A stretch of 41,125 bases of DNA, taken from assembly GCF_013248915.1 (NCBI RefSeq), contig NZ_JABNNE010000050.1, one strand, 5' to 3'. This document shows, piece after piece, positions 17,193 through 39,657 of the stretch; within the stretch, counting starts at the first letter, position 1, and the number at the start of each line of letters is the position of its first letter. This DNA comes from Corallococcus exiguus. GTDB lineage: Bacteria > Myxococcota > Myxococcia > Myxococcales > Myxococcaceae. Under the pieces are notes generated by a model. It ran no database searches, was not told where the DNA came from, and saw only the letters and a list, made by a program, of their open reading frames with translations. The position numbers and the translations under genes were made by a program.

Positions 17193-20100
17193 CTACCGGC
17201 GCGCCTTGCGAGCCGGCTTGCCCCGAGTGGTCTTCTTCGCCGCGGCCTTCTTCGCGGCGGTCTTCTTCCCCGCCGCCTTCTTCGCCGAAGCCTTCTTCGC
17301 AGGAGCCTTCTTCACCGCCGCCTTCTTCGCGGCCGTCTTCTTGCCCGCTGCCTTCTTCGAGGAAGCCTTATTCGCAGGGGCCTTCTTCGCGGCGGACTTC
17401 TTGCTCGCCGCCTTCTTCGCGGAGGCCTTCTTCGCAGCGGCCTTCTTCACCGCCGCCTTCTTCGCGGAGGCCTTCTTCGCAGGGGCCTTCTTCACCGCCG
17501 CCTTCTTCGCGGAGGCCTTCTTCGTCGGAGCCTTCTTCACCGGCTTCGCCGAACCCTCCGGAGCCTCGCGGGCGTCGCCGCCCTCCTTGGCCCGGTCGAA
17601 CTCGCGCATCGCGTCGTCCACGAGGCCCATGCTCATGTACGCGACGCCCAGGTCGTGGTGGTCCGCCGGGGACAGCCCTTCCTTGGTGCCCTCGCGCAGC
17701 TTGTTGAGGGCCTCCTCCACCACCGGATCCGCGGCCTGGGGCGCCTGCGAAGCCTCTTCGGCTTCAATCTCGCCCTTCAGCTCCTGGCCCAGGTTCACCG
17801 CATCGTCCTTCGGTGCCTGCGGCTCGGTGGCCACCTTCACCTGGGCGCTCTCGGGCGCGGGGGACTCGGACGCTTCAGGGGCTTCGGACTCGGTGCTGCC
17901 CGGCAACGGCGACGGCGTCTCGGACATGGGGGGCTCCGGGGCGATGCGCTGGAGGTGATCCTGCAGCTTGACCGTGCGCTCCTGGAGCTCCGCCACCCGG
18001 GCCTTGTCCTTCTCCACCACGTCCGGCGGAGCACGGGCCACGAAGTTCGGGTTGTCCAGCTTGCGCTGCAAACCGGTGAGTTCCTGCTCGGAGCGGACGA
18101 TCTCCTTCTTCAGGCGGTCGCGCTCCGCGTCCAGGTCCACCAGGCCCGCCAGGGGCACGTAGATTTCCAGGTTGCCGCTCACGAACGCCGCCGCCTGCGG
18201 AGGCTTGGCGCCCGGGGGGCCCACCACCACCTCGGACAGGCCCGCGAGCGGCATCAGGTACGCGCGCCAACGCTCCAACAGCTCGCGCGTCGTCGCGTCC
18301 GGGCTCTGCACCACCGCCTTCACCTTGGCGGACGGCGGCAGGTTGCTCTCGCCGCGCAGCGTGCGCAGGCCCTCGATGGCCGCGATGACCGGCGCCATCT
18401 CGCCTTCCGCGGCCGCGTCCACCCACGCCGTCTCCGGCGCCGGGTACGCCGCGATGCAGATGCTCTCCGTGGGCCGGGACATCGGCAGCTTCTGCCAGAT
18501 CTCCTCGGTGATGAACGGCATGAACGGGTGCATCAGCCGCAGGATGCGGTCCAGGCACGTCACCAGCACCGCGCGCGTGGTGTCCTTGGCCTCCGCGTCG
18601 TCGCCGTACAGCGAGCCCTTCGCCAGCTCGATGTACCAGTCGCAGAACTCCGCCCACAGGAACTGGTACAGCGTGGATGCCGCCTCCGCGAAGCCGAACG
18701 CCTCCAGCGACGCGCGCGTCTCCTCCGTGGCCTTCTGCAGGCGGGAGAGGATCCACCGGTCCGCCAGCGTCAGCTTGCGGCCCTCGAGCGGCGTCTTGTC
18801 CAGGCTGAAGTCGCCCATGTTCATCAGGGCGAACCGGCTGGCGTTCCACAGCTTGTTGCAGAACGCCTTGTAGCCACCCAGGCGGTCCATCGACAGCTTG
18901 ATGTCACGGCCCTGCTGCGTGAGCGACGCCAGCGTGAAGCGCAGCGCGTCCGCGCCGTGCGCCGGCATGCCCTGCGGGAAGCGGTTGCGCAAGGACGGCT
19001 GCAGCGACTCCGCCTTCGCGCCGAGGATGACGTCCAGGGGATCGATGACGTTCCCCTTCGTCTTGGACATCTTCTCGCCCTTCTCGTCGCGCACCATCGC
19101 GTGCAGGTACACGGTGCGGAAGGGCACGTCGTTCATGAAGTGCAGGCCCATCATCATCATCCGGGCGACCCAGAAGAAGATGATGTCGTGGCCCGTCTCC
19201 ATCACGGACGTCGGGTAGAAGGTCTGGAGGTCCGCCGTCTGCTTCGGCCAGCCCAGCGTGGAGAACGGCCACAGCGCGGACGAGAACCAGGTGTCCAGCA
19301 CGTCCGGATCCTGCGTCAGCTCCTTGCCGCCGCACTTCGGGCAGGACTCCGGCGCCGTGCGAGACACGATGACGTCCGCCGTGTCCTTGGAGCGCTCCTC
19401 CGCCGGGGTGCACGCCGCGCAGTACCACGCGGGGATCTGGTGGCCCCACCACAGCTGGCGGCTCACGCACCAGTCGTGGATGTTGTTCATCCAGTGGAAG
19501 TACGTGTTCGTCCACGACTCGGGGACGAACTTCGTGCGGCCCTCCTCCACGGCCTGGATGGCCGGCTTCGCCAGCGGTTCAATCTTGATGAACCACTGCG
19601 GCGACAGGCGCGGCTCCACCACCGTGGTGCAGCGCTGGCAGGTGCCCACGTTCAGCTTGTGCGGCTCCTCCTTCTCCAGCAGGCCCAGCTCCGTCAGGTC
19701 CGCCAGCACCTGCTTGCGCGCCTCCCGGCTCTCCAGGCCCGCGTACTTGCCGGTGTCCTTCGTCATCCGCGCCGCTTCGTCCAGGATGGACAGCATCGGC
19801 AGCTTGTGGCGCAGGCCCGTCTGGTAGTCGTTGAAGTCGTGCGCGGGCGTGACCTTCACCACGCCGGTGCCGAACTCCATGTTCACCAGCTCGCCGTCCG
19901 CGATGACCGGAATCTCACGGTCGGTGAGCGGCAGCGCCACGCTCTTGCCGATGAGGTCCTGGTAGCGCGGATCCTCCGGGTGCACGGCGACGGCCGTGTC
20001 GCCCAGCAGCGTCTCCGGGCGCGTCGTCGCCACGGTGAGGAAGCGCTCCGTGCCCTTCACCGGGTAGCGGATGTGCCAGAGCGAGCCGTTCTTCTCCTCG

Positions 20101-20687
20101 TGCTCCACTTCCAGGTCGGAGAGGGCCGTGCGGCAGGACGGGCACCAGTTGATCAGCTTCTGGGCCCGGTACATCAGGCCCTCTTCGTACAGCCGGACGA
20201 ACACCTCGCGCACCGCGGCCGAGGACTGCTCGTCCATGGTGAAGCGCTCGCGGCTCCAGTCCAGGGACGCGCCCAGGTAGCGGTGCTGCTCACCGATGCG
20301 CGCGCCGAACTTGCCCTTCCACGTCCAGACGCGCTCGAGGAACGCCTCGCGGCCCAGGTCGTGGCGGCTCTTGCCCTCCCTCTTCTTGAGCTCCTTCTCC
20401 ACCACCATCTGCGTGGCGATGCCCGCGTGGTCCGTGCCCGGCAGCCAGAGCGCGTTGAAGCCGCTCATCCGCTTCCAGCGCGTGAGGATGTCCTGGATGG
20501 TCGCGGTGAGCGCGTGGCCGATGTGCAGGCTGCCCGTCACGTTGGGCGGCGGCAGCACGATGCTGAACGGCGGCTTGGAGGAAGGGGCTTCGGCGCGGAA
20601 GTAGTCGCGCTCCAGCCAGTGGTTGTACCACCGCGCCTCCACTTCGGAGGGCTCGTAGGCCTTGGACAGTTCAGTCGTGTCAGTCAT
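17193..20687 (-). CDS. valS: valyl-tRNA synthetase with ~280-aa C-terminal extension (acidic S/P/E linker, TPR-like helix pair, Lys/Ala-rich histone-H1-like tail)
   Basis: HIGH motif [15 protein letters not shown]; KMSKS motif KMSKTKGN; canonical C-terminal coiled coil, then the extension ending in [22 protein letters not shown] repeats. Confidence 0.9.
17200..17560 (-). repeat. low-complexity codon repeat (gccttcttcgc units on plus strand) encoding the (A/S/P)KKA tail of ValRS
   Basis: Seen directly as ~12-nt periodicity. Confidence 0.55.
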
Positions 20688-20740: not shown

Positions 20741-22003
20741 TCAATGCTGGGTCTCGCGGTCCTTGATGAGCCGCTCCAGCTCTTCCCGGATGATGGTCTC
20801 CGCCAGCTGCGGAACGACCTCCCAGGCAATCTTCTCGATGACCTCGCGGGACGCCTTCGACAGCGCCTCGCGCAGCAGCGCCTCTCCGCCATCCGCGGCC
20901 GGACGGGCGCGCGCGGGCGGAGTCGCCGGCGAGGGACCGCCGATGTCCAGGGAGATCTCCTCCGCGCCGCTGGGCTCGGGCAGCGAGTCCTCGATGCGAA
21001 TGCTCTCCGTACGGGCCTGCGCCGCGGGCGGGGCGGCCGGAGCGCCCAGCCCGAACGGATCCCGGGCACGGGCGGCCGGAGGCACCGCGGCGGGCGGGGG
21101 CGCGGACGGCAGCGGCGCGGCGCCCGGAGGACGCGGGAAGCCGCCCGGGATGTTCGGGGCGCCAGGGCCCGGAGGACGCGCGGCCATGCCCGGAGGCGGT
21201 GCACCCGGCGGACGCGCGCCCGGAGGCACGGCACCCGGAGGAGGACGCGCACCCGGCGGCATGGCGCCCGGAGGCGGCGCCCCCGGAGGACGCGCGCCCA
21301 TGCCCGGAGGCGGCGCACCCGGCGGAGGACGTGCACCCGGCGGCATGGCGCCCGGAGGCGGCGCACCCGGAGGACGCGCGCCCGGAGGAACAGCGCCCGG
21401 CAGCGGACGCGCCGCACCCGGAGGAGGAGGCACACCGGCGCCCGGAGGACGCGCGCCCGGAGGCGGCGCACCCGGCGGAGGACGCGCACCCGGCGGCATG
21501 GCGCCCGGAGGCGGCGCACCCGCGGGACGCGCACCCGGCGGCACGGCGGCGGCGGGCGGCGCGCTGACCGGAGCGCTCGGGGCGGAGGTCTGGGGCAGAA
21601 TGCGCGTCGCGGCGGACGCGGGCATCGTGTTGGACTTCTGGCCCACCAGCGCCTTCACCTTGTCGAGGAGGATCTGGCTCTCGAAGGGCTTGGTGATGTG
21701 GTCATCCGCCCGGGCGGCCTTCGCGCGGTTCTCGTCGAACGCCTCGAAGGTGCCGGCGAGCAGCAGCACCGGGATGGCCTGCGTGGAGGGGTCGCCCTTG
21801 AGCGCCTCGCAGACCTCGTAGCCGCTCTTGCCCGGCATCATCACGTCGGCGAGCACCACGTCCGGACGCAGCTCGCGCGTGCGGGAGATGGCGTCCAGCC
21901 CGTTGTCCACCGCGGTCACCTGGAAGTCTTCCGTCGCGAAGATCATCCCGATCACCTTGCGGATGGTGAGCGAGTCGTCGGCGATCAGTAGATTCTTGGG
22001 CAT
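20741..22003 (-). CDS. romR: RomR-like response regulator (REC domain, long Pro-rich linker, conserved acidic C-terminal helix region)
   Basis: N-terminal REC (MPKNLLIADDSLTIRKVIGMIFATEDFQVTAVDNGLDAISRTRELRPDVVLADVMMPGKSGYEVCEAL); ~200-aa PGARPPGAPPPG repeats; Glu-rich C-terminal tail; 420 aa; start set to MPKNLL (22003), not the track's 22087. Confidence 0.75.
   Translation of the reverse strand: MPKNLLIADDSLTIRKVIGMIFATEDFQVTAVDNGLDAISRTRELRPDVVLADVMMPGKSGYEVCEALKGDPSTQAIPVLLLAGTFEAFDENRAKAARADDHITKPFESQILLDKVKALVGQKSNTMPASAATRILPQTSAPSAPVSAPPAAAVPPGARPAGAPPPGAMPPGARPPPGAPPPGARPPGAGVPPPPGAARPLPGAVPPGARPPGAPPPGAMPPGARPPPGAPPPGMGARPPGAPPPGAMPPGARPPPGAVPPGARPPGAPPPGMAARPPGPGAPNIPGGFPRPPGAAPLPSAPPPAAVPPAARARDPFGLGAPAAPPAAQARTESIRIEDSLPEPSGAEEISLDIGGPSPATPPARARPAADGGEALLREALSKASREVIEKIAWEVVPQLAETIIREELERLIKDRETQH
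21090..21560 (-). repeat. GC-rich degenerate tandem repeat (~15-18 nt units) encoding the Pro-rich linker
   Basis: Seen directly (cccggaggacgcgcgcccggaggcggcgcacccggcgg iterations). Confidence 0.6.
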
Positions 22004-22120
22004 CGGCTCCGGCCTCGGGGGGCGCATACCCCCCTGAATTCGTTTGAGATTTCGGGCGAGCAAGCCTGCCTGCACGCCCTGTGTCAATCGGAGAAGCTTA
22101 GGATTCGCGCGTTGGGCCGA

Positions 22121-22987
22121 TCAAGAAAACATGCGCTGCAGGTCCAGTAACATCACCGGATCCGGCAGCCCCGGCGCCCGGAACGTTCCGGGAAGCTCGG
22201 CCGGCTTGAACTTCTGCAGCACACCCAGCACCCGGGTGGCCGCCAGCCCTACGTTCCGCCCCGCCAGTTCCGTGAGGACGAACAGCTCCTCCGCCTGGGC
22301 CGGCGCACCCAGCAGCGCTGGAATCGAACAGATGGGCCATAGCGCCTGCGCGTGGGGATAGACGCCCGCCACCGGCCCGCTCTGCACCGGGAGCACGCTG
22401 AACGCCTCGCCCCGGGGTACCACCTGGGAGACGCAACCCAGCGGGACGCCGAACAGCACCCCCTGGGACTCCAGCACCAGCGCCCGCTCCGGGGGCGCGT
22501 CCGCATAGTGCACGGGCCGGGGCTCTGGCGGGGTCGCCCGGGGGCCCGCCCGGTGCGGCAGCGCTTCCACGATGAGCTCCAGGTACAGCCGGTCCTTGTG
22601 CAGCACCGCGCCCCGGCTCAGCGGCGCCAGCGAGTCCGCCAGGCCCGGAGGCAGCAGGAAGAACGGGTCCCTCGCGACGTCCGCGACCTCCACCACGGCG
22701 CGCACCCGCACCGCGAGCGTGGGGCTGACGTCCAGGACCACCACCATGCCCGGCACTTCCTCAGGCAGGCCGCCGAGCAGCGCGGCGAGGTCCTTCACTT
22801 CCAGTACGCCGCGCAGACTCGCGCCGCGAGCGCCCGGCATCGCGACCTCGATGACGGAGGTGGCCTCCACCGCGTAGCGCGTCTCTCCGGCCTCCACCAG
22901 CAGGCAGAGCCGCCGTCCGCTTTCAAAGGGCACGGCCCGGGACCCTAGCAGCCTTCCAGCGTTGGGTGCTAAGCCCTGAACAGTCAT
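22121..22987 (-). CDS. tandem CheW-like domain protein
   Basis: Two CheW-like segments (LLVEAGETRYAVEATSVIEV...; LVLESQGVLFGVPLGCVSQVV...); RBS GAGGAG 12 nt upstream of ATG at 22987; start codon overlaps the divergent gene's start (CATG). Confidence 0.55.
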   Translation of the reverse strand: MTVQGLAPNAGRLLGSRAVPFESGRRLCLLVEAGETRYAVEATSVIEVAMPGARGASLRGVLEVKDLAALLGGLPEEVPGMVVVLDVSPTLAVRVRAVVEVADVARDPFFLLPPGLADSLAPLSRGAVLHKDRLYLELIVEALPHRAGPRATPPEPRPVHYADAPPERALVLESQGVLFGVPLGCVSQVVPRGEAFSVLPVQSGPVAGVYPHAQALWPICSIPALLGAPAQAEELFVLTELAGRNVGLAATRVLGVLQKFKPAELPGTFRAPGLPDPVMLLDLQRMFS

Positions 22988-24374
22988 GGCGCGACTGCTC
23001 CTCGTCGACGACGAAAAGATCGCCCGCAATCTCTACGGCGACTACCTCACGGCCGCGGGACACCTGGTCACGGCGGTGCCCACCGTGGCGGACGCGAAGG
23101 CCGCCCTCTCCGCGGCGCGGTTCGACGCGGTGGTGACGGACCTCATCCTCCCCGGCGGCGACGGCATGGAGGTGCTTCGCCACGTGCGCGAGCGCTACCC
23201 CGGCGTGGAGGTGCTGGTCATCACCGGCCTGGACAAGGTGGCCCCCGCGGTGCGCGCCATCAAGAGCGGCGCGGCGGAGTACCTGGTCAAGCCCGTGGCG
23301 CCGGAGGCCCTGGAGCACGCGCTGCGCCGCGCGCTCACCACGCGCGACCTGATGCGTGAGAACGCATCCCTGCGCCAGCACGTCGCGCTGCTGGAGGCGG
23401 GCCAGCGCATCGCCACCACGCTCGACCGCGAGCGGCTGTCCACGGCCGCGTCCGACGCGCTGGAGTCCATGGCCAACGCCTCCGCGGTGATGCTCCTGGA
23501 GCGGGACCCCGGCGGCACGGGCTTCCGCTCGCACGGCATGCGCGGGCTGCCGGTGGACCTGCACGAGGCGCTCGTCCCGCTGCTCATCGAGCGGCTTTCG
23601 GGCACGCGCACGCAGGTGGAGCTCGACGGACTTCAAGTTCCCTGGCCGCGCACCCTCTCCTTCCCCGCCGTGGACGGCGAGCTGGTGCTGGGCCACGCGG
23701 TGCTCTTCCACGACAACGCGCCCGCGGAGCACCACGCGGAGACCGTGGGCTTCCTCGTGCGCAACTGGGCGCTGGCCCTGCGCAACCTGGGCCGCTTCGC
23801 CGCCGTGGAGGACCTGGCCTACGTCGATGATCTCACCCGCCTGTTCAACACGCGCTACCTGCACCTGGTGCTGGACCGCGAGGTGAACGAGGCCCTCCAG
23901 ACGGAGCGCCCCTTCTCCCTGCTGTTCCTGGACCTGGACCGCTTCAAGGCCATCAACGACACGCACGGGCACCTGGTGGGCTCGCGGGTGCTGGTGGAGG
24001 CCGCGCGCGTGCTCAAGGGCTGCGTGCGCGACCCGGACGTGGTGGCGCGCTTCGGCGGCGACGAGTACGTGGTGCTCCTGCGCGGCACGGACTCCGGCGG
24101 GGCCCTCAAGGTCGCCGAGCGCATCCGCCGCACCATGGAGACCCATCAGTTCCTGGGCCGCGAGGGGCTGGCGCTCAAGCTCACCACCTGCATCGGCGTG
24201 GCCAGCTTCCCGGAGCACGCCCAGGACAAGGACCACCTGCTGGACCTGTCCGACCGGGCCATGTACCGGGGCAAGCGCGGCACCCGGAACGTCGTCTACA
24301 TGGCGGCGCAGGACCTGGAAGCCACCCCGGCCGAGCGCCGTCAGAATCCCCCGCCCCCGCAGGGCCAGGGCTGA
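22986..24374 (+). CDS. response regulator with REC - GAF-like - GGDEF domains (GGDEY variant)
   Basis: REC (LLLVDDEKIARNL...DLILPGGDGMEV...KPV); GGDEF domain with RFGGDEYVVLL active-site variant and RxxD-like I-site context (DRFKAIND). Confidence 0.8.
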   Translation: MARLLLVDDEKIARNLYGDYLTAAGHLVTAVPTVADAKAALSAARFDAVVTDLILPGGDGMEVLRHVRERYPGVEVLVITGLDKVAPAVRAIKSGAAEYLVKPVAPEALEHALRRALTTRDLMRENASLRQHVALLEAGQRIATTLDRERLSTAASDALESMANASAVMLLERDPGGTGFRSHGMRGLPVDLHEALVPLLIERLSGTRTQVELDGLQVPWPRTLSFPAVDGELVLGHAVLFHDNAPAEHHAETVGFLVRNWALALRNLGRFAAVEDLAYVDDLTRLFNTRYLHLVLDREVNEALQTERPFSLLFLDLDRFKAINDTHGHLVGSRVLVEAARVLKGCVRDPDVVARFGGDEYVVLLRGTDSGGALKVAERIRRTMETHQFLGREGLALKLTTCIGVASFPEHAQDKDHLLDLSDRAMYRGKRGTRNVVYMAAQDLEATPAERRQNPPPPQGQG

Positions 24375-24388
24375 ACGCCGGACGCGCG

Positions 24389-24782
24389 CTACTTGCGCAG
24401 GCTGCCCACGGTGAGGTGCTTGGGCAGCTCCACTTCCGCGGGCACGCCGCCGCCGCCGCCGCCCTCGCCCACCGCCTCCACCTCTTCGTGAGACGCGCCG
24501 GTGGTGATGAGGCGGTACTTCTGCGACGCCTCGCGGTCGTGCTGGGCCTGCTCCGGATCCAACCGCGCGATGAGCTGCCAGAAGAGGGCCGCGTGCTCGC
24601 GCTCCTCGTCCATGACGTGCCGCAGGATGGCCTTCGCCTCCTCATTGTCCGTCGCGTCCAGGTGCGCGGCGTAGAGGTTGATGGCGTCCAGCTCCGCCTC
24701 GATGTTGAGCCGGATGGAGCGGGCCAGTTCGGAGTCCGTCAGCTTCCGGGGCACCAGCGAGTGGAACGGGTTCGTCTGCGGC
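24389..24782 (-). CDS. encC: encapsulin cargo protein, ferritin-like (EncC-like) with C-terminal targeting peptide
   Basis: 130 aa; ferritin-like ExxH motifs (DEEREHAALFW); Gly-rich linker then C-terminal LTVGSLRK matching encapsulin cargo-loading peptide consensus; RBS GAGG 6 nt upstream. Confidence 0.7.
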
Positions 24783-24940
24783 ATGAGGACCTCAGCGACA
24801 GGGAGAGTCCCCAACAGGCGAGCGGGCAACGACGTTCCGTCAGGCCGGGCTGGAGGACGTGCGCGAGCATCCGTTCGGTCGCGAGCGCGGTCAACCGAAT
24901 CCCGCTGGGGGTGCGTTGCGCGTGAACACCTGCCTCCGCC

Positions 24941-26470
24941 ATGCTCCCGCGCATGGAGACCCCCTCGCCGCTCGCGCAGCTGCTCCAGGCCCTGGACGCG
25001 GGGGACCTGGAGAAGGCACGGGTCGCGGCCGGGGCGCTGCAGCGCGCCAACGCCCACACCCATCAGGTCGCCGCGGAGGTCCTCCACGAGCTGCGCCAGC
25101 CCCTGCTGGGCGCGAAGGCCTACGCCCAGCTGCTGGCCGAGGAAGGAGGCTCCAGCGGCCCGCTGAAGCTGCTGCTCGCGCAGGTGGAGCGGATGGAGCA
25201 GATCGTCTCCGACTTCATCCGCCTGGCCAGCGAGCGGCCGGCCCCGCAGCAGCGGCTGTCCCTGGCCGCGCCCATCTGGGCGGCGGCGAAGGTGTTCAGC
25301 GTCAACCCGGACTCGGCGCGCATCTCACTGGAGGTGGAGGCCCCCGAGGACCTCACCATCCAGGGCAACGCGCGGCTGATTGAGCAGCTCACGCTCAACC
25401 TGCTCAACAACGCCCGCGACGCCATGTCCGGCCGGGGCCGCGTGAAGGTGACGCTCACGCGCGATGGCGCCTCCGCGGCCCTCTACGTTTCCGACTGGGG
25501 ACCGGGCATCCCGGACGAGCTGAAGACGCGCATCTTCGAGCCCTACGTCTCCGCCAGCAAACGCGGCACGGGCCTGGGGCTCGCCGTCTGTCGTCGCATC
25601 GCGCAGGAGCACCACGCGCAGATTGCCCTGGTGCCGCCCACGACGCTGCGCGAAGTGCCGCCCCCGGCCACCGTGTTCCGCGTGCTCTTCCCGCCCACGG
25701 ACGCGCCGCGCCCGCCGCGCAAGCGCCTGCTGGTGGTGGACGACGAGGGCATCATCCGGATGGTCTTCAAGGACCTGATGGACAAGGAGTGCGAAGTCAT
25801 TGAAGCGGCCACGGGCGAAGCCGCGCTCGAAATCCTCCGCTCGTCGCGCGTGGATCTCATCGTCACGGACAAGAACCTGCCCGGAATCTCCGGCCTGGAG
25901 TTGGCCCAGCACGCGCGGAAGCTGGATCCCGCGTCGCGCGTCATCCTGATGACGGGCTACCCCTCGCTGGTGACGACGCAGCAGGCGCTGCAGCTGGGCC
26001 TGGTGGACTACCTGCTCAAGCCCTTCGACGACATCCGCCAGGTGCGCGCGCTGTTGCGGCAGGCGCTGTACACACCGGCCGCGCCGCCTGTCCCCGCCCC
26101 CAGCGCTGGCGTGCGCCGGGTGGACGTGCTGGAGGACAACCCGGCCACCGCGCGGCTGATTTCAGAGGCGCTGACGCTGTTGGGCCTGGAGGCGCGCGTC
26201 GTCGCGGGCGCGGAGGTGGCCACCATGGAGCCGCCCATGGGCGTGGTGGTGTCTTGGGACTTCGCGCCGGCCTACGGCAAGAAGGCGCTGGAGCTGGCCC
26301 GGGCCCTGAGCCAGGGCGCGCCCTTCGTCGTCCTGGCCGAGCACCTCACCATGGACACGGCCCTGGCATCGCTGCGCGCCGGGGCCGCCGCGTGCCTGCC
26401 CAAGCTGCTCTCCGACACCACGGCGCTCAGCCGCGAGCTGGGCCTGGCCTTCAAGAAGACCGCTTCCTGA
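24941..26470 (+). CDS. hybrid sensor histidine kinase (HisKA-HATPase_c-REC-degenerate REC)
   Basis: H-box LHELRQPL; N/G boxes (LLNNARDAM, SDWGPGIP, GTGLGLAV); REC with LLVVDDE...DLIVTDKNLPGISG...KP. Confidence 0.75.
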   Translation: MLPRMETPSPLAQLLQALDAGDLEKARVAAGALQRANAHTHQVAAEVLHELRQPLLGAKAYAQLLAEEGGSSGPLKLLLAQVERMEQIVSDFIRLASERPAPQQRLSLAAPIWAAAKVFSVNPDSARISLEVEAPEDLTIQGNARLIEQLTLNLLNNARDAMSGRGRVKVTLTRDGASAALYVSDWGPGIPDELKTRIFEPYVSASKRGTGLGLAVCRRIAQEHHAQIALVPPTTLREVPPPATVFRVLFPPTDAPRPPRKRLLVVDDEGIIRMVFKDLMDKECEVIEAATGEAALEILRSSRVDLIVTDKNLPGISGLELAQHARKLDPASRVILMTGYPSLVTTQQALQLGLVDYLLKPFDDIRQVRALLRQALYTPAAPPVPAPSAGVRRVDVLEDNPATARLISEALTLLGLEARVVAGAEVATMEPPMGVVVSWDFAPAYGKKALELARALSQGAPFVVLAEHLTMDTALASLRAGAAACLPKLLSDTTALSRELGLAFKKTAS

Positions 26471-26555: not shown

Positions 26556-28247
<1,692 letters not shown>

Positions 28248-28378: not shown

Positions 28379-28735
28379 CTACTCCGCGAAGCGCACGAGG
28401 TTGAGCAGCTGCCCCATGTCCAGGGGCTTCTGCAGGGTGATGGCGACGCCCTTGCGCAGGCCCCGGTCGGAGATGTTGGCGTCCGTGCTGGCGGTCATCA
28501 TCAGGACGGAGATGCGCTGGAAGCGGGGGTCCGCCTTCAGCATCTCCGTGAAGTGGATGCCGTCCAGGTGGGGCATCAGGTAGTCGGTGATGACCAGCCC
28601 CACGGGGTGACGCTCCATGATGTCCAGGGCCTGGAGCGCGTCCGACGCCGAGAACACGGTGTAGCCATGCATCTCCAGGTAGCGAGAGAGCATGGTGCAC
28701 AGCTCGTAATCGTCGTCGACGACCAGGATGTTCAC
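28379..28735 (-). CDS. single-domain CheY-like response regulator
   Basis: MNILVVDDD...GLVITDYLMPHLDG...MTAS...KP; GTG start. Confidence 0.8.
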   Translation of the reverse strand: MNILVVDDDYELCTMLSRYLEMHGYTVFSASDALQALDIMERHPVGLVITDYLMPHLDGIHFTEMLKADPRFQRISVLMMTASTDANISDRGLRKGVAITLQKPLDMGQLLNLVRFAE

Positions 28736-28862
28736 GGGGTTCGGGCCGAAACGGGGCGCTGGAAGGTAACAGCGACGCCGGTCGTTGACAACGCGAAGGA
28801 CGGCTTCTTAGCTGCCGGCCCGAATGGCGAAGCGCATGGCGAAGCAAGGGGAGGCGCGGGAC

Positions 28863-29897
28863 ATGGACGCGCGGCTGGAGGGAGTCGCGGACGCCTTCGA
28901 GGCGCGGGACTTCGAGGCCGCGCTCACCAGCGCCGACGCCCTGCTCCGGGACGTTCCGGACTCACCAGAAGCCCTGCACTACCGGGCCGCCGCGCTGGTG
29001 GAGGTGGGACGCCTGGAGGACGCGGGCAAGGCCTATGGCGCCGCCCTCAAGATGGCCCCGGAAGACCTGGAGATCCTCTTCGGCGCGGCGGAATTCCTCG
29101 TGTGCCGCACCGGCGAGGACCGCGAGGCGGTGGAGGAAGGGCTGGAGTGGTGCGGCCGCGGGCGGAAGCTGGCGCAGCGGGCCGATGACGTGGAGCTCGT
29201 CTACGAGTTCCTCCTCCTGGAGGGCATGGGCCTCAACCAGCTGGGGGAATGTGAGTCCGCGCTGAAAATCCTGGACCAGGCGCTGACGCACATGCCGCGC
29301 TCGACGGACGCGCAGCTGGAGCGGGGCATCGCGCTGTTCGAGTTGTGCCGCTTCGCGCCCGCGCAGGAGGCCTTCGAGCGGGTGTTGAAGGACGCGCCGG
29401 ACGAGGCCTGGGCGCACCACTACCTGGGGCTGGTCGCGGAGCGGCGCCAGGATGCGAAGGAGGCGAAGAAGCGCTTCTCCCGGGCGCAGGCGCTGGCCCC
29501 GGAGGAGCTGCCGCCGCCGGTGGCGCTGGAGGAGGCGGCGTTCGACCGCGCGGTGGAGGACGCGATGCGCGCCCTGCCCTCGCAGGTGAAGCAGTACATG
29601 GACAACGTGACGCTGGCGGTGGAGGACCTGCCGTCGGATGAGGACCTGCTGGGTCAGCAGCCGCCACTGTCACCGTGCATCCTGGGGGTGTTCCGGGGCA
29701 CGCCCGTGGGCGAGCGCAGCGTGATGGACGCGGCGGATCACTTCCCGCCCTCCATCGTGCTGTACCAGAAGAACCTGGAGCGCTTCGCGCGGACCCGCGA
29801 GGAACTCATCGAACAGATTGGCATCACGGTGATGCACGAAGTCGGTCACTTGATGGGTCTGGATGAAGACGACCTGTGGGAGCGGGGGCTGGACTAG
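28863..29897 (+). CDS. TPR-repeat protein with C-terminal zincin-like HExxH domain (Zincin_1/DUF1025-like)
   Basis: Several TPR-like helical pairs; C-terminal TVMHEVGHLMGLDEDDLWERGLD; start moved to ATG with RBS GGGGAGG (28863) instead of the track's 28824. Confidence 0.65.
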   Translation: MDARLEGVADAFEARDFEAALTSADALLRDVPDSPEALHYRAAALVEVGRLEDAGKAYGAALKMAPEDLEILFGAAEFLVCRTGEDREAVEEGLEWCGRGRKLAQRADDVELVYEFLLLEGMGLNQLGECESALKILDQALTHMPRSTDAQLERGIALFELCRFAPAQEAFERVLKDAPDEAWAHHYLGLVAERRQDAKEAKKRFSRAQALAPEELPPPVALEEAAFDRAVEDAMRALPSQVKQYMDNVTLAVEDLPSDEDLLGQQPPLSPCILGVFRGTPVGERSVMDAADHFPPSIVLYQKNLERFARTREELIEQIGITVMHEVGHLMGLDEDDLWERGLD

Positions 29898-33812: not shown

Positions 33813-33911
33813 GGTAGGGCCTCCGGACCTGGTGGCCGGCCCGGTCTTCAAAACCGGTGAGGGGCTGCGAGAGCAGTCCCTGGCGAGTTCGATTCCCGTG
33901 CCCTACCGCCA
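33813..33911 (+). tRNA. selC: tRNA with UCA anticodon and long variable arm; probable tRNA-Sec (selC-like)
   Basis: 8-bp acceptor stem GGTAGGGC/GCCCTACC + G73 + CCA; anticodon arm CCGGT-cTTCAaa-ACCGG (U33, UCA, A37); 8-bp variable-arm stem with GAGA loop; T-arm GCGAG-TTCGATT-CCCGT (one A.C mismatch); 8/5 architecture. Confidence 0.5.
33847..33911 (+). repeat. attL-like: 3' 65 nt of the tRNA (anticodon loop to CCA), direct repeat partner at 38137..38201
   Basis: 62/65 identity with the downstream copy, same orientation. Confidence 0.65.
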
Positions 33912-33965
33912 CCCACTCCTCTGCGAACCTGGTGGTTGAAAAAGCTGTGCGCGACGTGACGACCC

Positions 33966-34481
33966 TCAGAATGCTGCGACACCGAGACTCATCCCCGCAA
34001 TCGTGTTGATCTTGGTACGCCAAGCCTCTGGCGTCATGAGGTAGGGCTCAAGCATTCTGATCAACTCCTGGCTTGGGCGATTCGTCGTATAGCCAGGCTT
34101 TCCTGTTCGCCCCCCCGTCTTCCATGAATCCGTTTTCGTCCACTCCATCGCCTCCGCGACGCCAACGGACTCTGCGTACGTCAGCGCATACGCGCGAGTA
34201 TCGGAGGGGCGATCGAGGTCCCATACATAGACGAGGAGAAGCCGTCGAAACTTCTCGTACTTCTTGTGGACGCTGAACGACCTATCCGAGTGTGCCTTCA
34301 GTTGGATGGGACAGGCGATGAAGTCTCCCACCTGCTGATCCAGGTCGCTGTAGACGATCAGGTCGATTCCGCGGTCTCGCTCTGGGCGTGCCACTTCCAA
34401 ACCGGCACGGAGGAGTTCTGTTACGATCCAGTTTCGACCAACAAGCTCCACCATCTGAGAGTCCATACCAGCTTGTACCAC
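33966..34481 (-). CDS. hypothetical protein with PD-(D/E)xK-like motif (restriction-endonuclease fold candidate)
   Basis: ELLRAGLEV...RGIDLIVY...IQLKAHS pattern resembling the Hjc/PD-(D/E)xK core; AT-rich upstream region. Confidence 0.4.
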   Translation of the reverse strand: MVQAGMDSQMVELVGRNWIVTELLRAGLEVARPERDRGIDLIVYSDLDQQVGDFIACPIQLKAHSDRSFSVHKKYEKFRRLLLVYVWDLDRPSDTRAYALTYAESVGVAEAMEWTKTDSWKTGGRTGKPGYTTNRPSQELIRMLEPYLMTPEAWRTKINTIAGMSLGVAAF

Positions 34482-34717
34482 TCGACCAACGTGGCCTCGT
34501 GACGAAGAGGCGCTATGCCGTCAGGCGGACTACGCGGAGTGGCAAACTCTTGCGCTTGCCGCCGCACCCACACGGCCGAGCCCTATGGTCGCTTTCAATA
34601 CCTATTGGGTTTATTGATATTAGACTTTTCACCGCGAGCGCCACAGGCCCTGTCCCACGCAGCCGAGGCCCCACCAGTGTACCGCACCGGATTGTTGAGA
34701 CACCAGGTTGGTCGTAA

Positions 34718-35611
34718 TCAGGCCGCTTGCTTCTGCATCAGTTCCCGCCGGGCCTGACTCGGCGAGAGGAAGTGGTGACGCTCCAGCAACCAGTGCTCGT
34801 TGTACCGGTGAGCCCACTCCAGCAGCGCCAGCCGGAGTTCCTCCACGGTGGCGAAGGTGCGCACCCAGAGCAGTTGCTCCTTGAGGGTACGGATGAAGCG
34901 CTCGGCACAGCCGTTGCCCTCGGGACTGCGGACGAAGGAGGGACTGGACACGGCCCCCAGGAAGCGCAGCTCGTTCTGGAAGGCGTCGGAAGTGTACTGG
35001 CTGCCGTTGTCGTGGCGGATGGACAGCCCCGCGGCCACGCCCCGGCCGTACGCCCCGAAGCGAGCCTTGACGCCCTGGCGGATGGGCTCGAGGGCCTCGA
35101 AACGGGTGCCGACCTTGGCCGCGTGGATGCCGACGCACTCGGCGGTGCCGTGGTCGATGGCGATGAAGACGGTGGCCTGGCCCTCCAGCTTCGTCACGGT
35201 GCAGGTGGCGTCGGTGCCCCACATGACGTCGGGCTTGTCGGTGGTAATCGTGCCGTCATGGTTGCGCGGTCCCAGCACCCGGCGGGCCCTGCCCGGTGCC
35301 AGCAGCCCTGCCTCGCGCATCCGCCGCAGGCAGCGGGCCTTCGACGTGCGTACGCCCTGAGCGCGAAGCCGGGCCCATACCTTGCGGTGCCCCTCGCCCA
35401 GAAACGGGGAGGCGGCCAGCACGCCGCGGATGGCCTCCAGCAGCGCCTCGTCCGTCAGCGCCGTCTTCGGGCCTCGCCGGGCTGTCGGAGAGAGCGCTGC
35501 CTGCCGGCGGGCACGGTGCCGGTACACCGTGGCGCGAGGCACTCGCCAGGTGGCCGTCACGAGCACCAGTCCGTACGGCTTGCCGCTGGAAGGCGAGAGA
35601 CTGGCGCTCAT
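34718..35611 (-). CDS. IS3-family transposase OrfB (rve integrase core, DDE)
   Basis: VMWGTDATCT...FIAIDHGTAECVG...IRHDNGSQYTS...NGCAERFIRTLKEQ (D, D, E catalytic residues in rve spacing); the track's 445-aa ORF is a frame read-through over orfA. Confidence 0.75.
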   Translation of the reverse strand: MSASLSPSSGKPYGLVLVTATWRVPRATVYRHRARRQAALSPTARRGPKTALTDEALLEAIRGVLAASPFLGEGHRKVWARLRAQGVRTSKARCLRRMREAGLLAPGRARRVLGPRNHDGTITTDKPDVMWGTDATCTVTKLEGQATVFIAIDHGTAECVGIHAAKVGTRFEALEPIRQGVKARFGAYGRGVAAGLSIRHDNGSQYTSDAFQNELRFLGAVSSPSFVRSPEGNGCAERFIRTLKEQLLWVRTFATVEELRLALLEWAHRYNEHWLLERHHFLSPSQARRELMQKQAA

Positions 35612-35952
35612 CCTCTCGACTTCCTCCAGGGAAAACCCGGCGCGTTGCCCTCCAGCAGCCGGGCCTTCTGCGCCAGCAACTCGTTCTTCATCATCAGCTC
35701 GCCCACCATGGCCTTGAGCCGCAGCACCTCGTCGTCCGCTGCTTCCGGCTCGCGGCTCTTGAGGTTCGCCTCGGCCCCAGCCAGGAACTTCTCCCGCCAC
35801 TCGCTCAGCACCGCTGCCGTGACGCCCAACTCTCGGGAGAGGGCGTCGAGCTCCTCGCCCTTGAGCAGACGGAGCACGGCCTCCTTCTTCCGCTTCGCCG
35901 AGAACCGACCGCGCTCTGCCGTCCTGTCCTGCTTCTGCTTCTTCACATCCAC
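35608..35952 (-). CDS. IS3-family transposase OrfA (HTH DNA-binding)
   Basis: MDVKKQKQDRTAERGRFSAKRKKEAVLRLLKGEELDALSRELGVTAAVLSEWREKF + leucine-zipper-like C-terminus. Confidence 0.75.
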   Translation of the reverse strand: MDVKKQKQDRTAERGRFSAKRKKEAVLRLLKGEELDALSRELGVTAAVLSEWREKFLAGAEANLKSREPEAADDEVLRLKAMVGELMMKNELLAQKARLLEGNAPGFPWRKSRG

Positions 35953-36241
35953 CTCGCGAGGGGGAGGCTATCCCCCAGAAAGGTGTCTCAGGAATCCCTG
36001 GGGCGGAGGAAGGGCGACGTGGCGTACACCTCGTCCGGTGACCGGTAAGCTGCACGAAGTGTCGGCCGCCGCGCGCTGAGATCCGAGCGGACGTGCAGTT
36101 CCCGTAGGCACGCCGTCAGCCCCACGCACTCGCCCCAGCGATGGGTCAGCCTGGAGCACCTGTCAGCTCTATCTGGTATTGCACGACCTCGTGACGACGT
36201 GGCCTTCCGGCGAACGGGGGCCAGCGCCAGGAGGCCTCCGC

Positions 36242-37594
36242 ATGCTGCCACGATGGTCGATTGCGCTGCTGATCGTGATGCTGGCCGGATGCAGCAGCAC
36301 TACGAAGTCCGTGCGCCTACACACGGGCCACGGCGACCCCATCGTCCTCGCCCCACGCAGCGGCGATGCCGCGCCGGTGGAGTTGGACGAAGACGACTTT
36401 GTTGAAGCCGTAGCAGCGCTCGCTCAGCGCGTGCGGCCGTCCACGCGTCCCCAGGAAACAGCCCGGGGGTTGTTCGAGGTGGATCCACGCAGCGGTTCGT
36501 ACCTGTACGAGCCGCGCAGCCACCGTGTCATCCCGCTGGGACCGGGCGAACACCTGGAGGGCGAACGCCCCTCAACAGAGGTGGAGTTGACGCGCGCATA
36601 CCTTCGCTGGTGCGAGCGAACGAGCAATCCCGGCGATTGCCTGCGCCTCCTGATGGAGAGCCCCACTGTCACCGGGGATGGCCGTTACGCCCTGGCCATG
36701 GCCTTGGCCCAAGGCGTCGTGCGGGACGAGATGATGGACGCCTTCAAGGAGATGGCTGATCCCCAGGCCATGATGGCTGCGGTTCTTTGGACGTGGACCA
36801 CGTACTGCATCTTGCTCGCGGTGCCCGAGCCTTTCTCGAAGGGCGTGGCCGCGGTGATGACCGCCTCCCTCATTGCCTACGTGGGGGTCGATACGTTCTG
36901 GAGCCTCATCTTGGGCTTCAAGCAGCTGGTGGAGGAGGTGGAGCTGGCCACCACGTTTGACGAACTCCGCGAGGCGGGTGAGCGCTACGGCAAGGTCATG
37001 GGCCGCAACGCGGCGCGCGCGTTCGCCATGTTGGCCACGGCCGCCCTTGGGAACACGGCGGCGGGGCTGGGGGCGAAGGTGCCCATGCTGCCCGGCGCCG
37101 CGCAGGCGGCGGTCCAGGCTGAAGCGCAAATGGGCATCAGGCTCGCGGCGGTCGCGGACGTGGGAACGGTGGCCGTGAGCGCCGAGACCGTCACCATCGC
37201 CCTCGCGCCCGGCGCGGTGGCCATGGGGGCCAAAGCCACGGGCGGCAGCGCCTCCGCCAAGGCGCGCCCCTCGGGCTACAGGGCCTGGGGCTCGTTCAGT
37301 GGTTTCAAGAAGGCCATGGGCCCGGCGGGCAAGAACAAGGAGTGGCACCACATCGTCGAGCAAACCACGGGCAACGTGAAGCGCTTCGGCCCCCAGGCCC
37401 TCCACAACACCGAGAACCTCATCCCACTGGACAAGAGCCTGCACAGCGACGTCAGCGCGTTCTTTTCGTCGATTCGACGCGATATCACCGGCTCGCCATT
37501 GACCGTACGGCAATGGTTGAGCACGCAGTCCTACGAGGCCCAACGTGACTTCGGGCTTCTGGCCATCGAGAACGTCGGAAAGGGGCTCTGGTGA
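36242..37594 (+). CDS. lipoprotein polymorphic toxin with C-terminal WHH-type HNH/EndoVII nuclease domain (SitA-like)
   Basis: Lipobox LIVMLAGCSS after signal peptide; strong RBS GGAGG; Ala/Gly-rich pre-toxin linker; C-terminal KNKEWHHIVEQ...NTENLIPLDKSLHSD (WHH His-Asn-His HNH core). Confidence 0.7.
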   Translation: MLPRWSIALLIVMLAGCSSTTKSVRLHTGHGDPIVLAPRSGDAAPVELDEDDFVEAVAALAQRVRPSTRPQETARGLFEVDPRSGSYLYEPRSHRVIPLGPGEHLEGERPSTEVELTRAYLRWCERTSNPGDCLRLLMESPTVTGDGRYALAMALAQGVVRDEMMDAFKEMADPQAMMAAVLWTWTTYCILLAVPEPFSKGVAAVMTASLIAYVGVDTFWSLILGFKQLVEEVELATTFDELREAGERYGKVMGRNAARAFAMLATAALGNTAAGLGAKVPMLPGAAQAAVQAEAQMGIRLAAVADVGTVAVSAETVTIALAPGAVAMGAKATGGSASAKARPSGYRAWGSFSGFKKAMGPAGKNKEWHHIVEQTTGNVKRFGPQALHNTENLIPLDKSLHSDVSAFFSSIRRDITGSPLTVRQWLSTQSYEAQRDFGLLAIENVGKGLW

Positions 37595-37944
37595 TGAAGT
37601 TGCAGGACCTTGTCGAGCAGTTCGTCGAGAACGTAGTCGCGCAGAACGAGGCCATCTTCCGGGGAGACGCCAAGACGGGAAACAAGCACGCCAGGAAGTA
37701 CGGTGCCGCCGTCGATAAGCTCCTGGCCCACGGCAATGCCGGACGTGACGCTCTCGCCGTACTGCTCAAGCATGAGCGCATGGACGTGCGCGTGATGGCT
37801 GCCGCGCATCTGCTCCGCTATCGGACGGCCGAAGCCAAAGCGGTCCTGGAGGAAGCGGCCAAGGGGCAGGGGCTGGTCCCGTTCGGAGCGCAGCAGGCAT
37901 TGAAACGTTGGGAAGAAGGAACCTGGGCGCTCGATCCTGAGTAG
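37591..37944 (+). CDS. putative cognate immunity protein (all-helical, 116-117 aa)
   Basis: Start (GTG 37591 or ATG 37594 with RBS AAAGGGG) overlaps the toxin stop (GTGATG); small cytoplasmic helical protein, the typical size and placement of an immunity gene. Confidence 0.5.
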   Translation: MMKLQDLVEQFVENVVAQNEAIFRGDAKTGNKHARKYGAAVDKLLAHGNAGRDALAVLLKHERMDVRVMAAAHLLRYRTAEAKAVLEEAAKGQGLVPFGAQQALKRWEEGTWALDPE

Positions 37945-38136
37945 TTCTGATCGTGGCTGAGGAGGCCATGGCGCGCGCGGGCATCTCCGGCGCGCAGGTC
38001 ACAGCTTTCACCGTCCAGGTGCAGCCAATGGACGGACGCGGGTGAAGCGCCATGGACTCGCCACCCACCCCACTCCAGAGGGAAACCGGCCGCCCCTCCA
38101 GCCCTCCGAGCACCTCGCGGCTCGGGGTGGCGGGGA

Positions 38137-38201
38137 TTCAAAACCGGTGAGGGACTGCGAGAGCAGTCCCTGGTGAGTTCGATTCCCGTTCCCTACCGCC
38201 A
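38137..38201 (+). repeat. attR-like partial tRNA 3'-half copy (direct repeat of 33847..33911)
   Basis: TTCAAAACCGGTGAGGGACTGCGAGAGCAGTCCCTGGTGAGTTCGATTCCCGTTCCCTACCGCCA; 5' half of the tRNA is absent. Confidence 0.65.
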
Positions 38202-38331
38202 ATATCAACGCGAGACAGATTGACGTCCCGGAATGAGACGCCGGCGGCCGGCAACCGGCCGTGAATCCGGGAAGCGGGGCGCACGATATCTGCATGCAGG
38301 GCGTGTCCTCCGCTGAGAACTCCGGCCTGCC

Positions 38332-39534
38332 ATGCTCACGCTCCCTGACGTAGCCACAGAAACGCGCGTTGCACGGGTTCGCAAGGCGCTCTCCGAGGAG
38401 CTGTTCTTCGTCCGCGGCGTCAGCCTGCTGCTCGTGGTGCTGGTCCATGTGATTGGCGTGGAGCCCTTCCAGGGGTTGCGCAAGCTCTTCGCTCCGGAAC
38501 GTGCGGAGTTGCGGTTCGCGGCGGAGCTCATCCACAGCTTCAACATGGCGGTGATGATCATCGGCTCGGGTGTGGCGGTGTCGCTCTTCGGCGCGCCGGA
38601 ATCGTCCTTTCGGGAGTTCGTGCACAAGAAGCTGCGCAAGCTCGTCATCCCCATGGGGGTGTGGGCCCCCGTCTTCCTCTACACCCATGAACTCTCCCAG
38701 GCGCGCCCGCGGACACCTGGCGGATGGCTGGCGCTGCTGGGCCAGTTCCCTGCCGCGTGGTTCCCTCCGTACGCCATCTTCTGGTTCATTCACGCCCTGG
38801 TGGGATGCACCTGTCTGGCGTGGGTGTATCAGCGCATCGTGCCCGCCCGGTATCACTGGGACGGGCTGAGCTACCTGGGCCTGTCCTGGGTGCTGTATGC
38901 CGCTGTCGAGGCCCTGGACTCTCCCCTGTCTGGAATTGGGATGAGATACCTCCGCTTCATCCTCTTCTGGAACTGCCTCTTCGGTCTGGGAATGAGCCTG
39001 TCTCCCTGGCTGGTGCTGGCGCGCACCCGGCTGTCCCAGTGGCCTCTGGCGCTCCAGGGACTGGTGCCCTTGGGATTCCTGGGACTGCTGGTCTCGTTCC
39101 ATGTCTCGGGGCTCGCGGAGGGGCTTCTGGATCCGCGACTGATCACGGGGCCGCTGGGCTTCTGCATGCAATTCACCCTGGCCATCTTCCTCCTGGGTGC
39201 CTCGTGGAAGGGATTGGCGATCCGGCTTGTCTACCTGGGCTCGATCAGCATGCCCCTCTACCTGTTCCACATCTATTTCGTGTCCGGGATGCGACTGGCT
39301 TTGGGCAAGGTGCTGCCAGGAGCGCCGCTCGTGCTGCACCTGGCGCTGGGCTCACTCGTCGGGCTGATGGGACCCCTGGGCCTCTACCTCCTCCTGGAGA
39401 GGAACCGTGCCTTCCGGTGGAGCATCGGTCTGCCGGGTGTCCCTTTGGACACGCCCGGCCTCGGCGCGGATGAGTCCCCTGGCACCCGGCCACGGCGGGT
39501 GGAGGCATCAACCATGAAAGGGGCCGACGTATGA
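38332..39534 (+). CDS. polytopic membrane protein, acyltransferase-3 (OafA-like) family candidate
   Basis: ~10 predicted TM helices; N-terminal R-x10-VRGVSLLLVVLVH resembles the acyltransferase_3 RG...H start motif. Confidence 0.5.
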   Translation: MLTLPDVATETRVARVRKALSEELFFVRGVSLLLVVLVHVIGVEPFQGLRKLFAPERAELRFAAELIHSFNMAVMIIGSGVAVSLFGAPESSFREFVHKKLRKLVIPMGVWAPVFLYTHELSQARPRTPGGWLALLGQFPAAWFPPYAIFWFIHALVGCTCLAWVYQRIVPARYHWDGLSYLGLSWVLYAAVEALDSPLSGIGMRYLRFILFWNCLFGLGMSLSPWLVLARTRLSQWPLALQGLVPLGFLGLLVSFHVSGLAEGLLDPRLITGPLGFCMQFTLAIFLLGASWKGLAIRLVYLGSISMPLYLFHIYFVSGMRLALGKVLPGAPLVLHLALGSLVGLMGPLGLYLLLERNRAFRWSIGLPGVPLDTPGLGADESPGTRPRRVEASTMKGADV

Positions 39535-39657
39535 ACCCAAATGAAGTGTTTCCTAATCGACAAAATGTTTGTGTTTCAGGGAGGGACGGCCATGCTGGCT
39601 GGCTAAACCAAAGTTCATGGAGGCCCCCTCTGAGCGCCTCCATTCCCCGGAGTTGTC

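Follow-up and report, generated by a model that had tools for sequence, protein, structure and literature searches.

A Corallococcus ortholog of the Myxococcus xanthus encapsulin cargo EncC, encoded within a conserved signalling cluster and apart from the shell operon

The stretch of Corallococcus DNA considered here—41,125 nucleotides in all, and referred to below as the window—contains on its minus strand a short gene, encC, whose product carries a ferritin-like helical domain followed by a flexible linker and a C-terminal targeting peptide, and which gene lies between genes for signalling proteins (Table 1). The encC reading frame begins at an ATG (24784-24782) and ends at a TAG (24389-24391), and its translation yields a product of 131 aa, MPQTNPFHSLVPRKLTDSELARSIRLNIEAELDAINLYAAHLDATDNEEAKAILRHVMDEEREHAALFWQLIARLDPEQAQHDREASQKYRLITTGASHEEVEAVGEGGGGGGVPAEVELPKHLTVGSLRK, in which residues 59-69 read DEEREHAALFW, residues 108-113 form a run of Gly, and residues 124-131 read LTVGSLRK. 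The earlier note had given the gene the span 24389-24782 and a product of 130 aa, of which description the open reading frame stands, but not the end coordinate or the length, which are short by 2 nt and one residue, respectively; the interval 24389..24782, if translated as a coding span, is out of frame and gives a product with a stop. A longer, GTG-started ORF of 232 aa that extends to 25087 was likewise discarded as the encC coding sequence, since the homologs have lengths of 127-133 aa, the initial MPQT (M1-P2-Q3-T4) is invariant, and the extension would overlap the divergent kinase gene. The GAGG upstream from the ATG is likely, from its sequence and position, to be the Shine–Dalgarno element of encC.

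Table 1. Position, strand, and basis of assignment of the features in and around encC; coordinates are those of the window.
Feature	Coordinates	Strand	Basis
ValRS	17193-20687	minus	
RomR-like REC + Pro-rich protein	20741-22087	minus	
CheW-domain protein	22121-23029	minus	
REC-GGDEF	22986-24374	plus	
encC coding sequence	24389..24784	minus	131 codons + TAG stop; translation
Targeting (cargo-loading) peptide LTVGSLRK, residues 124-131	24392..24415	minus	Conservation, window-unique motif, published peptide
Flexible linker, residues 104-122	24419..24475	minus	Low conservation, low pLDDT
EncFtn helical domain, residues 17-94	24503..24736	minus	AF2 model, Foldseek, conservation
Likely Shine–Dalgarno GAGG	24790..24793	minus	5 nt 5' of encC ATG; read by eye
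Candidate sigma-70-type promoter TTGACC-17 nt-GATGCT	24866..24894	minus	Conservation in 156-bp divergent spacer
Hybrid HK-REC	24941-26470	plus	
GroEL	26556-28199	minus	
Single REC	28379-28735	minus	
TPR-zincin	28824-29897	plus	

The order ValRS–RomR–CheW–REC/GGDEF–encC–HK/REC–GroEL is kept across at least four genera, the gene order of the window being found also in Myxococcus hansupus, Stigmatella aurantiaca, Aggregicoccus, and one metagenomic contig; and in every lineage examined encC is placed between the REC-GGDEF and the hybrid HK genes, inside the RomR/CheW/GroEL2 cluster. In M. xanthus, MXAN4460, MXAN4461, MXAN4462, and MXAN4463 encode, in turn, ValRS, RomR, a double-CheW protein, and a REC-GGDEF protein (PMC2034494); MXAN_4464 is EncC (PMC11202242), and MXAN_4467 is GroEL. 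The synteny with the M. xanthus encC region, which had been proposed from the window alone, is thus borne out by the published gene order. Two members of the cluster contain repetitive segments. The ValRS, of 1164 aa, ends in a Lys/Ala-rich C-terminal tail of about 120 aa that resembles histone H1/HC2 (Pfam HC2, 7.5e-11; 17193-17560, minus strand), the DNA for this tail being a 15/45-nt tandem repeat (17232-17542) whose copy number appears to be strain-variable (1159 versus 1164 aa). The RomR-like gene, for its part, has a Pro/Gly/Ala-rich middle portion (21168-21562, minus strand) whose DNA consists of degenerate tandem repeats, their periods ranging from 15 to 114 nt; its longest ORF in the window encodes 448 aa, and the protein is called as 420 aa in the sister strains.

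The window, which comes from a strain of the Corallococcus exiguus type, is 99.2% identical to the corresponding locus of assembly GCA_003668965.1 and 98.7% identical to that of GCA_013155175.1, over 18-19.5 kb, and 99.25% identical to the C. exiguus loci. Farther from encC, the minus-strand gene at 13325-15601 encodes a 758-aa homolog of the eukaryotic Major Vault Protein (MVP), with Pfam Vault repeats and an MVP_shoulder domain (9e-45), which protein, through its residues 111-742, matches the MVP structures of rat and human at E=4e-139; since this gene is present in GCA_003668965.1 but replaced by NmrA, aldo-keto-reductase, and SDR genes in GCA_013155175.1, its occurrence varies between strains. 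A preprint (10.1101/872010) has remarked on MVP homologs in myxobacteria. A selenocysteine tRNA gene occupies 33813-33911 on the plus strand (Rfam 70.5 bits; ARAGORN anticodon TCA), and the similarity to the sister strains stops at 33911, the end of that tRNA-Sec; the strain-specific remainder (33912-41125), which contains an rve-type transposase/integrase ORF (34718-36055, minus strand) and an acyltransferase gene (38332-39534, plus strand), looks like an island inserted at the tRNA-Sec. The window also encodes a protein with LysM and a VgrG3-like C-terminal portion of the peptidoglycan-hydrolase type (7832-9556, minus strand) and an HmuY-like protein (12250-13239, minus strand), together with two adjacent ORFs (9639-10673, plus strand; and 10670-12325, minus strand) for which Pfam returned no match.

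With respect to the transcription of encC, this gene and the REC-GGDEF gene converge, with 14 nt between their stops (24374-24389); and because no terminator-like hairpin was found between those stops, the two transcripts may read into one another. On its other side, encC diverges from the hybrid-kinase gene across 156 bp, in which spacer the elements TTGACC and GATGCT, as well as the 17 nt between them, are common to Corallococcus and Myxococcus hansupus, with the TTGACC being present also in Stigmatella. We propose this sequence, with low confidence, as a candidate encC promoter only, since a strict consensus promoter/terminator scan of 24200-25100 called nothing, the TTGACC-17-GATGCT included. 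The sole GG...GC candidate for a sigma-54 promoter 5' of encC, GGAACGTCGTTGC, was rejected upon inspection by eye because of its 9-nt, instead of 10-nt, spacing, and Rfam returned no RNA element near encC.

The encC product scored 111.2 bits with the NCBIfam model EncB_fam (NF058679), above the curated cutoff of 90 and over residues 1-129 of the 131 aa, and 36.5 bits (4.2e-9) with the Pfam model EncFtn-like (PF22277), also above the curated cutoff, which is 27. Its top match in the PDB was M. xanthus EncC (7S8T), over the full length and at E=3.5e-64, followed by other encapsulated ferritins—EncB among them—at 1e-9 to 1e-6. In a global alignment with M. xanthus EncC, 105 of 131 positions were identical (80%), with the differences falling almost entirely in the linker, and the identity was about 86% within the folded, crystallised domain. 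As judged from its sequence, the product of 24389..24784 is an ortholog of M. xanthus EncC (MXAN_4464), a secondary cargo of a family-1 encapsulin, and the ferritin-like cargo identity claimed by the earlier note is upheld by the two family models and by the closest relative in the PDB. The same note had called the cargo an orphan, which label is misleading because the literature's term for such an arrangement—the usual one for EncC—is secondary cargo. An identical protein is present in NCBI for Corallococcus sp. AB030 as well as in a multispecies Corallococcus record, and is encoded in the assemblies GCA_003668965.1 and GCA_013155175.1.

The public names of this family suggest a different identity: in RefSeq most EncC orthologs are 'demethoxyubiquinone hydroxylase family protein', in JGI 'rubrerythrin', and in other records 'ferritin', so that the NCBI, UniRef, and JGI names follow a reading in which EncC is a demethoxyubiquinone hydroxylase of the COQ7 family, a rubrerythrin, or a classical ferritin. 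EncC does indeed reach 25.6 bits with Pfam COQ7 (cutoff 23.5) and 25.9 bits with Rubrerythrin (cutoff 22.8), values marginally over the thresholds; those matches, however, cover positions 2-59 of the 169 in the COQ7 profile and 5-69 of the 137 in the Rubrerythrin profile, that is, one E...EXXH half-site and not a full four-helix bundle. Moreover, the NCBIfam model DMQ_monoox_COQ7 gave 14.5 bits, its cutoff being 180, and both EncB_fam and EncFtn-like score far higher than the generic profiles. A COQ7 protein has a full four-helix domain of some 170-200 aa with two EXXH motifs, whereas EncC has a single EXXH and an ordered part of about 90 residues, and it likewise does not form the intrachain four-helix bundle of a rubrerythrin or a classical ferritin. 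We accordingly regard this reading as exceedingly improbable, and the COQ7 and rubrerythrin names look like a carry-over from a generic di-iron-motif match; by contrast with those names, the shell protein from the encB-encA operon is correctly designated EncA in the public record. Labels of this kind in the records of the EncC family let encapsulin secondary cargos escape genome mining.

The AlphaFold2 model of EncC, built on 34 homologs, comprises helices at residues 17-44, 48-75, and 77-94 with pLDDT values of 86-98, so that the ordered part amounts to some 80-90 residues with two long helices. Foldseek placed the EncC chains of 7S8T first, followed by the encapsulated ferritins (EncFtn) of P. 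furiosus and R. rubrum. The predicted hairpin formed by helices 17-44 and 48-75 bears half of a ferroxidase site (Glu, Tyr, Glu-x-x-His), whose residues E31, Y38, E61, and H64 show no variation among 112 homologs and, in the PDB alignment, correspond with a register of +1 to Glu32, Tyr39, Glu62, and His65 of the R. rubrum EncFtn, which residues coordinate the di-iron centre across the dimer interface (PMC5012862). The equivalent of the R. rubrum entry-site Glu31 is Ala30 in EncC.

The helical domain is followed by a segment that is both variable and predicted to be disordered: residues 108-121 are about 30-60% conserved, constituting the lowest columns among the 112 homologs, and residues 109-118 have a pLDDT below 50 in the AlphaFold2 model. 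A perfect (GGC)6 at 24446-24463 (minus strand) encodes G108-G113, and the encC allele of C. exiguus JAAAPK01 has (GGC)4, and consequently two Gly fewer, in a protein otherwise identical; which comparison of alleles indicates that the linker length varies within the species by slippage at the GGC run. The tail beyond the linker is, on the contrary, strongly conserved, with L124 at 92%, T125 at 93%, V126 at 95%, G127 at 100%, and R130 at 88% in the 112 homologs, and variants of LTVGSLRR end nearly all the EncC homologs among the 120 matches listed. With the form of a targeting peptide taken as hydrophobic-x-hydrophobic-G-x-hydrophobic followed by a basic residue, EncC has such a peptide, LTVGSLRK, at its C-terminus after the disordered linker. 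The relaxed pattern [LMF][TS][VI]G[STNGA][LMF] has a single occurrence when the 41-kb window is translated in all six frames, two residues before the encC stop, so that a chance match would not explain the tail. Both elements noticed at the outset, the Gly-rich linker and the C-terminal LTVGSLRK, are therefore present, and the latter is the published targeting peptide of M. xanthus EncC, PEKRLTVGSLRR (PMC10402063), with the conservative change of the last residue from Arg in M. xanthus to Lys here. The structure of the M. xanthus EncC peptide bound on the inner face of EncA has been solved (PMC10402063; PMC11126975): the Leu, Val, and Leu occupy hydrophobic pockets, and the arginines touch Asp39, Asp214, and Tyr217 of EncA (PMC10402063; PMC11126975; PMC11202242).

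A tblastn search of the window with M. xanthus EncA, a query 100% identical to PDB 4PT2, gave nothing better than E=7, and none of the 30 called ORFs matched Pfam Linocin_M18; the window accordingly contains no encapsulin shell gene detectable by either search, as the earlier note had stated. That note had further proposed that the shell was encoded elsewhere and had set a genome search for encA as the check, which search located encA in the 99%-identical sister strain and in C. exiguus JAAAPK01. In GCA_003668965.1—whose 99.2%-identical locus encodes an identical EncC—encB, encA, and a sigma-54-activator gene are adjacent on the contig RAWQ01000007.1, which is other than that of encC. The EncB encoded there is an EncFtn-like protein of 162 aa with the motif LTIGSLRR; the EncA, of 290 aa, is a Linocin_M18 protein identical to M. 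xanthus EncA at 272 of the 290 positions, and keeps D39, D214, and Y217, with which the arginines of the targeting peptide reportedly make contact (PMC11126975). A family-1 shell gene with an intact peptide pocket is hence present in that sister assembly, one step removed from the window itself. In C. exiguus both genes lie on the contig JAAAPK010000002.1, encC at 370,822-371,211 and encA at 914,956-915,828, and are thus 544 kb apart. Among myxobacteria, EncA turned up at 73 genome loci, and each representative of a Corallococcus species that the search returned is among these. The objection that the genome might possess no shell gene at all falls away with the finding of encA in the sister-strain and C. 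exiguus assemblies.

Two other fates of EncC need to be weighed against loading into EncA. The first is that EncC be loaded into a second, different encapsulin shell, a proposition that has nothing direct in its favour and draws on the circumstance that the genome-wide search was made with EncA-derived patterns only, from which divergent shells would escape. Since, however, the EncC tail is near-identical to the peptide bound in the M. xanthus EncA structures, and since the same strain's EncB, whose gene adjoins encA, bears the same motif, we give a second shell hardly any credence. The second is that EncC be an EncFtn-like ferroxidase now free in the cytosol and no longer loaded into any shell, with the tail either being a relic or serving some other interaction connected with the neighbouring signalling genes. 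The distance of 0.5 Mb between encC and the shell gene, the location of encC in a conserved cluster with RomR, CheW, REC-GGDEF, and HK-REC, and the absence, stated in the reviews, of data on secondary-cargo regulation (PMC8229669) would accord with that notion; but a relic tail would decay, whereas conservation in the LTVG core stands at 92-100% next to a linker that drifts, even within a species. In addition, the partner EncA and its peptide-contact residues are conserved, and the M. xanthus ortholog is the most abundant cargo of the native shells, with some 92 EncC copies that make up about 52% of the cargo (PMC11126975; PMC10402063). A tail so strongly constrained beside a drifting linker makes a free ferroxidase very unlikely.

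We return to the EncA shell, against which no finding speaks, and consider it highly probable that encC specifies an encapsulated ferritin that is loaded by means of LTVGSLRK into an EncA shell encoded about 0.5 Mb away and that stores iron there. What was observed is the orthology, the conservation of the catalytic and targeting residues, a window without a shell gene, and the presence of encB-encA, along with the EncA contact residues, in a near-identical genome. By analogy with the work on M. xanthus, the Corallococcus EncC would form decamers, have ferroxidase activity, be encapsulated, and fulfil the corresponding physiological role. The two-helix monomers would pair so that E31, Y38, E61, and H64 of two chains would make up a di-iron ferroxidase centre, with five such dimers forming a decameric ring, and the disordered Gly/Pro/Ala linker would tether that ring to the LTVGSLRK. 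The peptide would dock in an inward-facing pocket of the HK97-fold EncA while the shell assembles, the EncA being made from the operon with the core cargo EncB some 0.5 Mb from encC. Fe2+ would enter by the shell pores and be oxidised by EncC to Fe3+, to be stored as mineral inside the shell, which storage would guard the cell from iron-driven oxidative damage under starvation.

That the EncC of M. xanthus is an encapsulin cargo with a remotely located gene was reportedly recognised in 2014, and the crystal and cryo-EM structures of the EncC system are said to date from 2022-2024. In that organism EncB and EncC are ferroxidase decamers, with EncC and EncD being encoded elsewhere in the genome (PMC11126975; PMC10402063; PMC8229669), and the encapsulin system is starvation-induced and protective against peroxide (PMC11126975, PMC10402063, PMC7355545, PMC8229669); in the reviews, EncC serves as the textbook case of a secondary cargo whose gene lies elsewhere (PMC8229669). 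Because the gene described here is an ortholog, in conserved synteny, of that published EncC, its biology—structure, targeting peptide, stoichiometry, and remote location—is already known, and the finding is a re-discovery. What the window adds is small: the conserved placement by signalling genes, and a linker whose length varies within the species, both of which could guide work on the regulation and the tuning of secondary-cargo loading.

That regulation is a subject about which, according to the reviews, nothing is known (PMC8229669). The supply of EncC might conceivably be under the control of the adjacent two-component and c-di-GMP signalling module, in which event the EncB:EncC:EncD cargo stoichiometry of the shell would depend on developmental or polarity signalling and not on the shell operon. 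We consider such control rather unlikely, and take the invariant linkage of encC with the kinase and diguanylate-cyclase genes as at most a weak lead on secondary-cargo regulation.

The closest known system is M. xanthus EncC (MXAN_4464, UniProt Q1D3Y8, PDB 7S8T), of 130 aa as opposed to 131 here, whose shell is the T=3, family-1 EncA. The two proteins share the ferroxidase residues, the linker with the LTVGSLR tail, the gene neighbourhood, and the separation from encBA; they differ in the linker (GEGGGGGGVPAEVELPKH in Corallococcus versus GKEGAAPSPADVTPEKR in M. xanthus), in the terminal Lys for Arg, and in a His for Arg before the Leu, the present protein being from another genus and known here from its sequence. 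EncB (MXAN_3557, PDB 7S5C) resembles EncC in the EncFtn fold, the EXXH half-site, the targeting motif (LTIGSLRR in the Corallococcus EncB), and the use of the same shell, but the two sequences are only distantly alike (PDB E=1.8e-6; 30 bits with the NCBIfam EncB exception model, whose cutoff is 210); in addition, EncB, with its 162 aa, has a Pro-rich linker and residues beyond the motif, and its gene is located in the shell operon. The R. rubrum EncFtn (Rru_A0973, PDB 5DA5), the prototype of these proteins, has in common with EncC the two-helix monomer, the equivalents Glu32/Tyr39/Glu62/His65 of the ferroxidase residues, and a C-terminal tail of the GSL type, and possesses the decameric-ring architecture that, on the basis of the M. 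xanthus protein, the Corallococcus EncC would also adopt. It differs, with an identity of about 30%, in having its gene directly upstream from that of a T=1 shell, in a tail consensus of SLGIGSLK versus LTVGSLRR (PMC11202242), and in an entry-site Glu31 where EncC has Ala.
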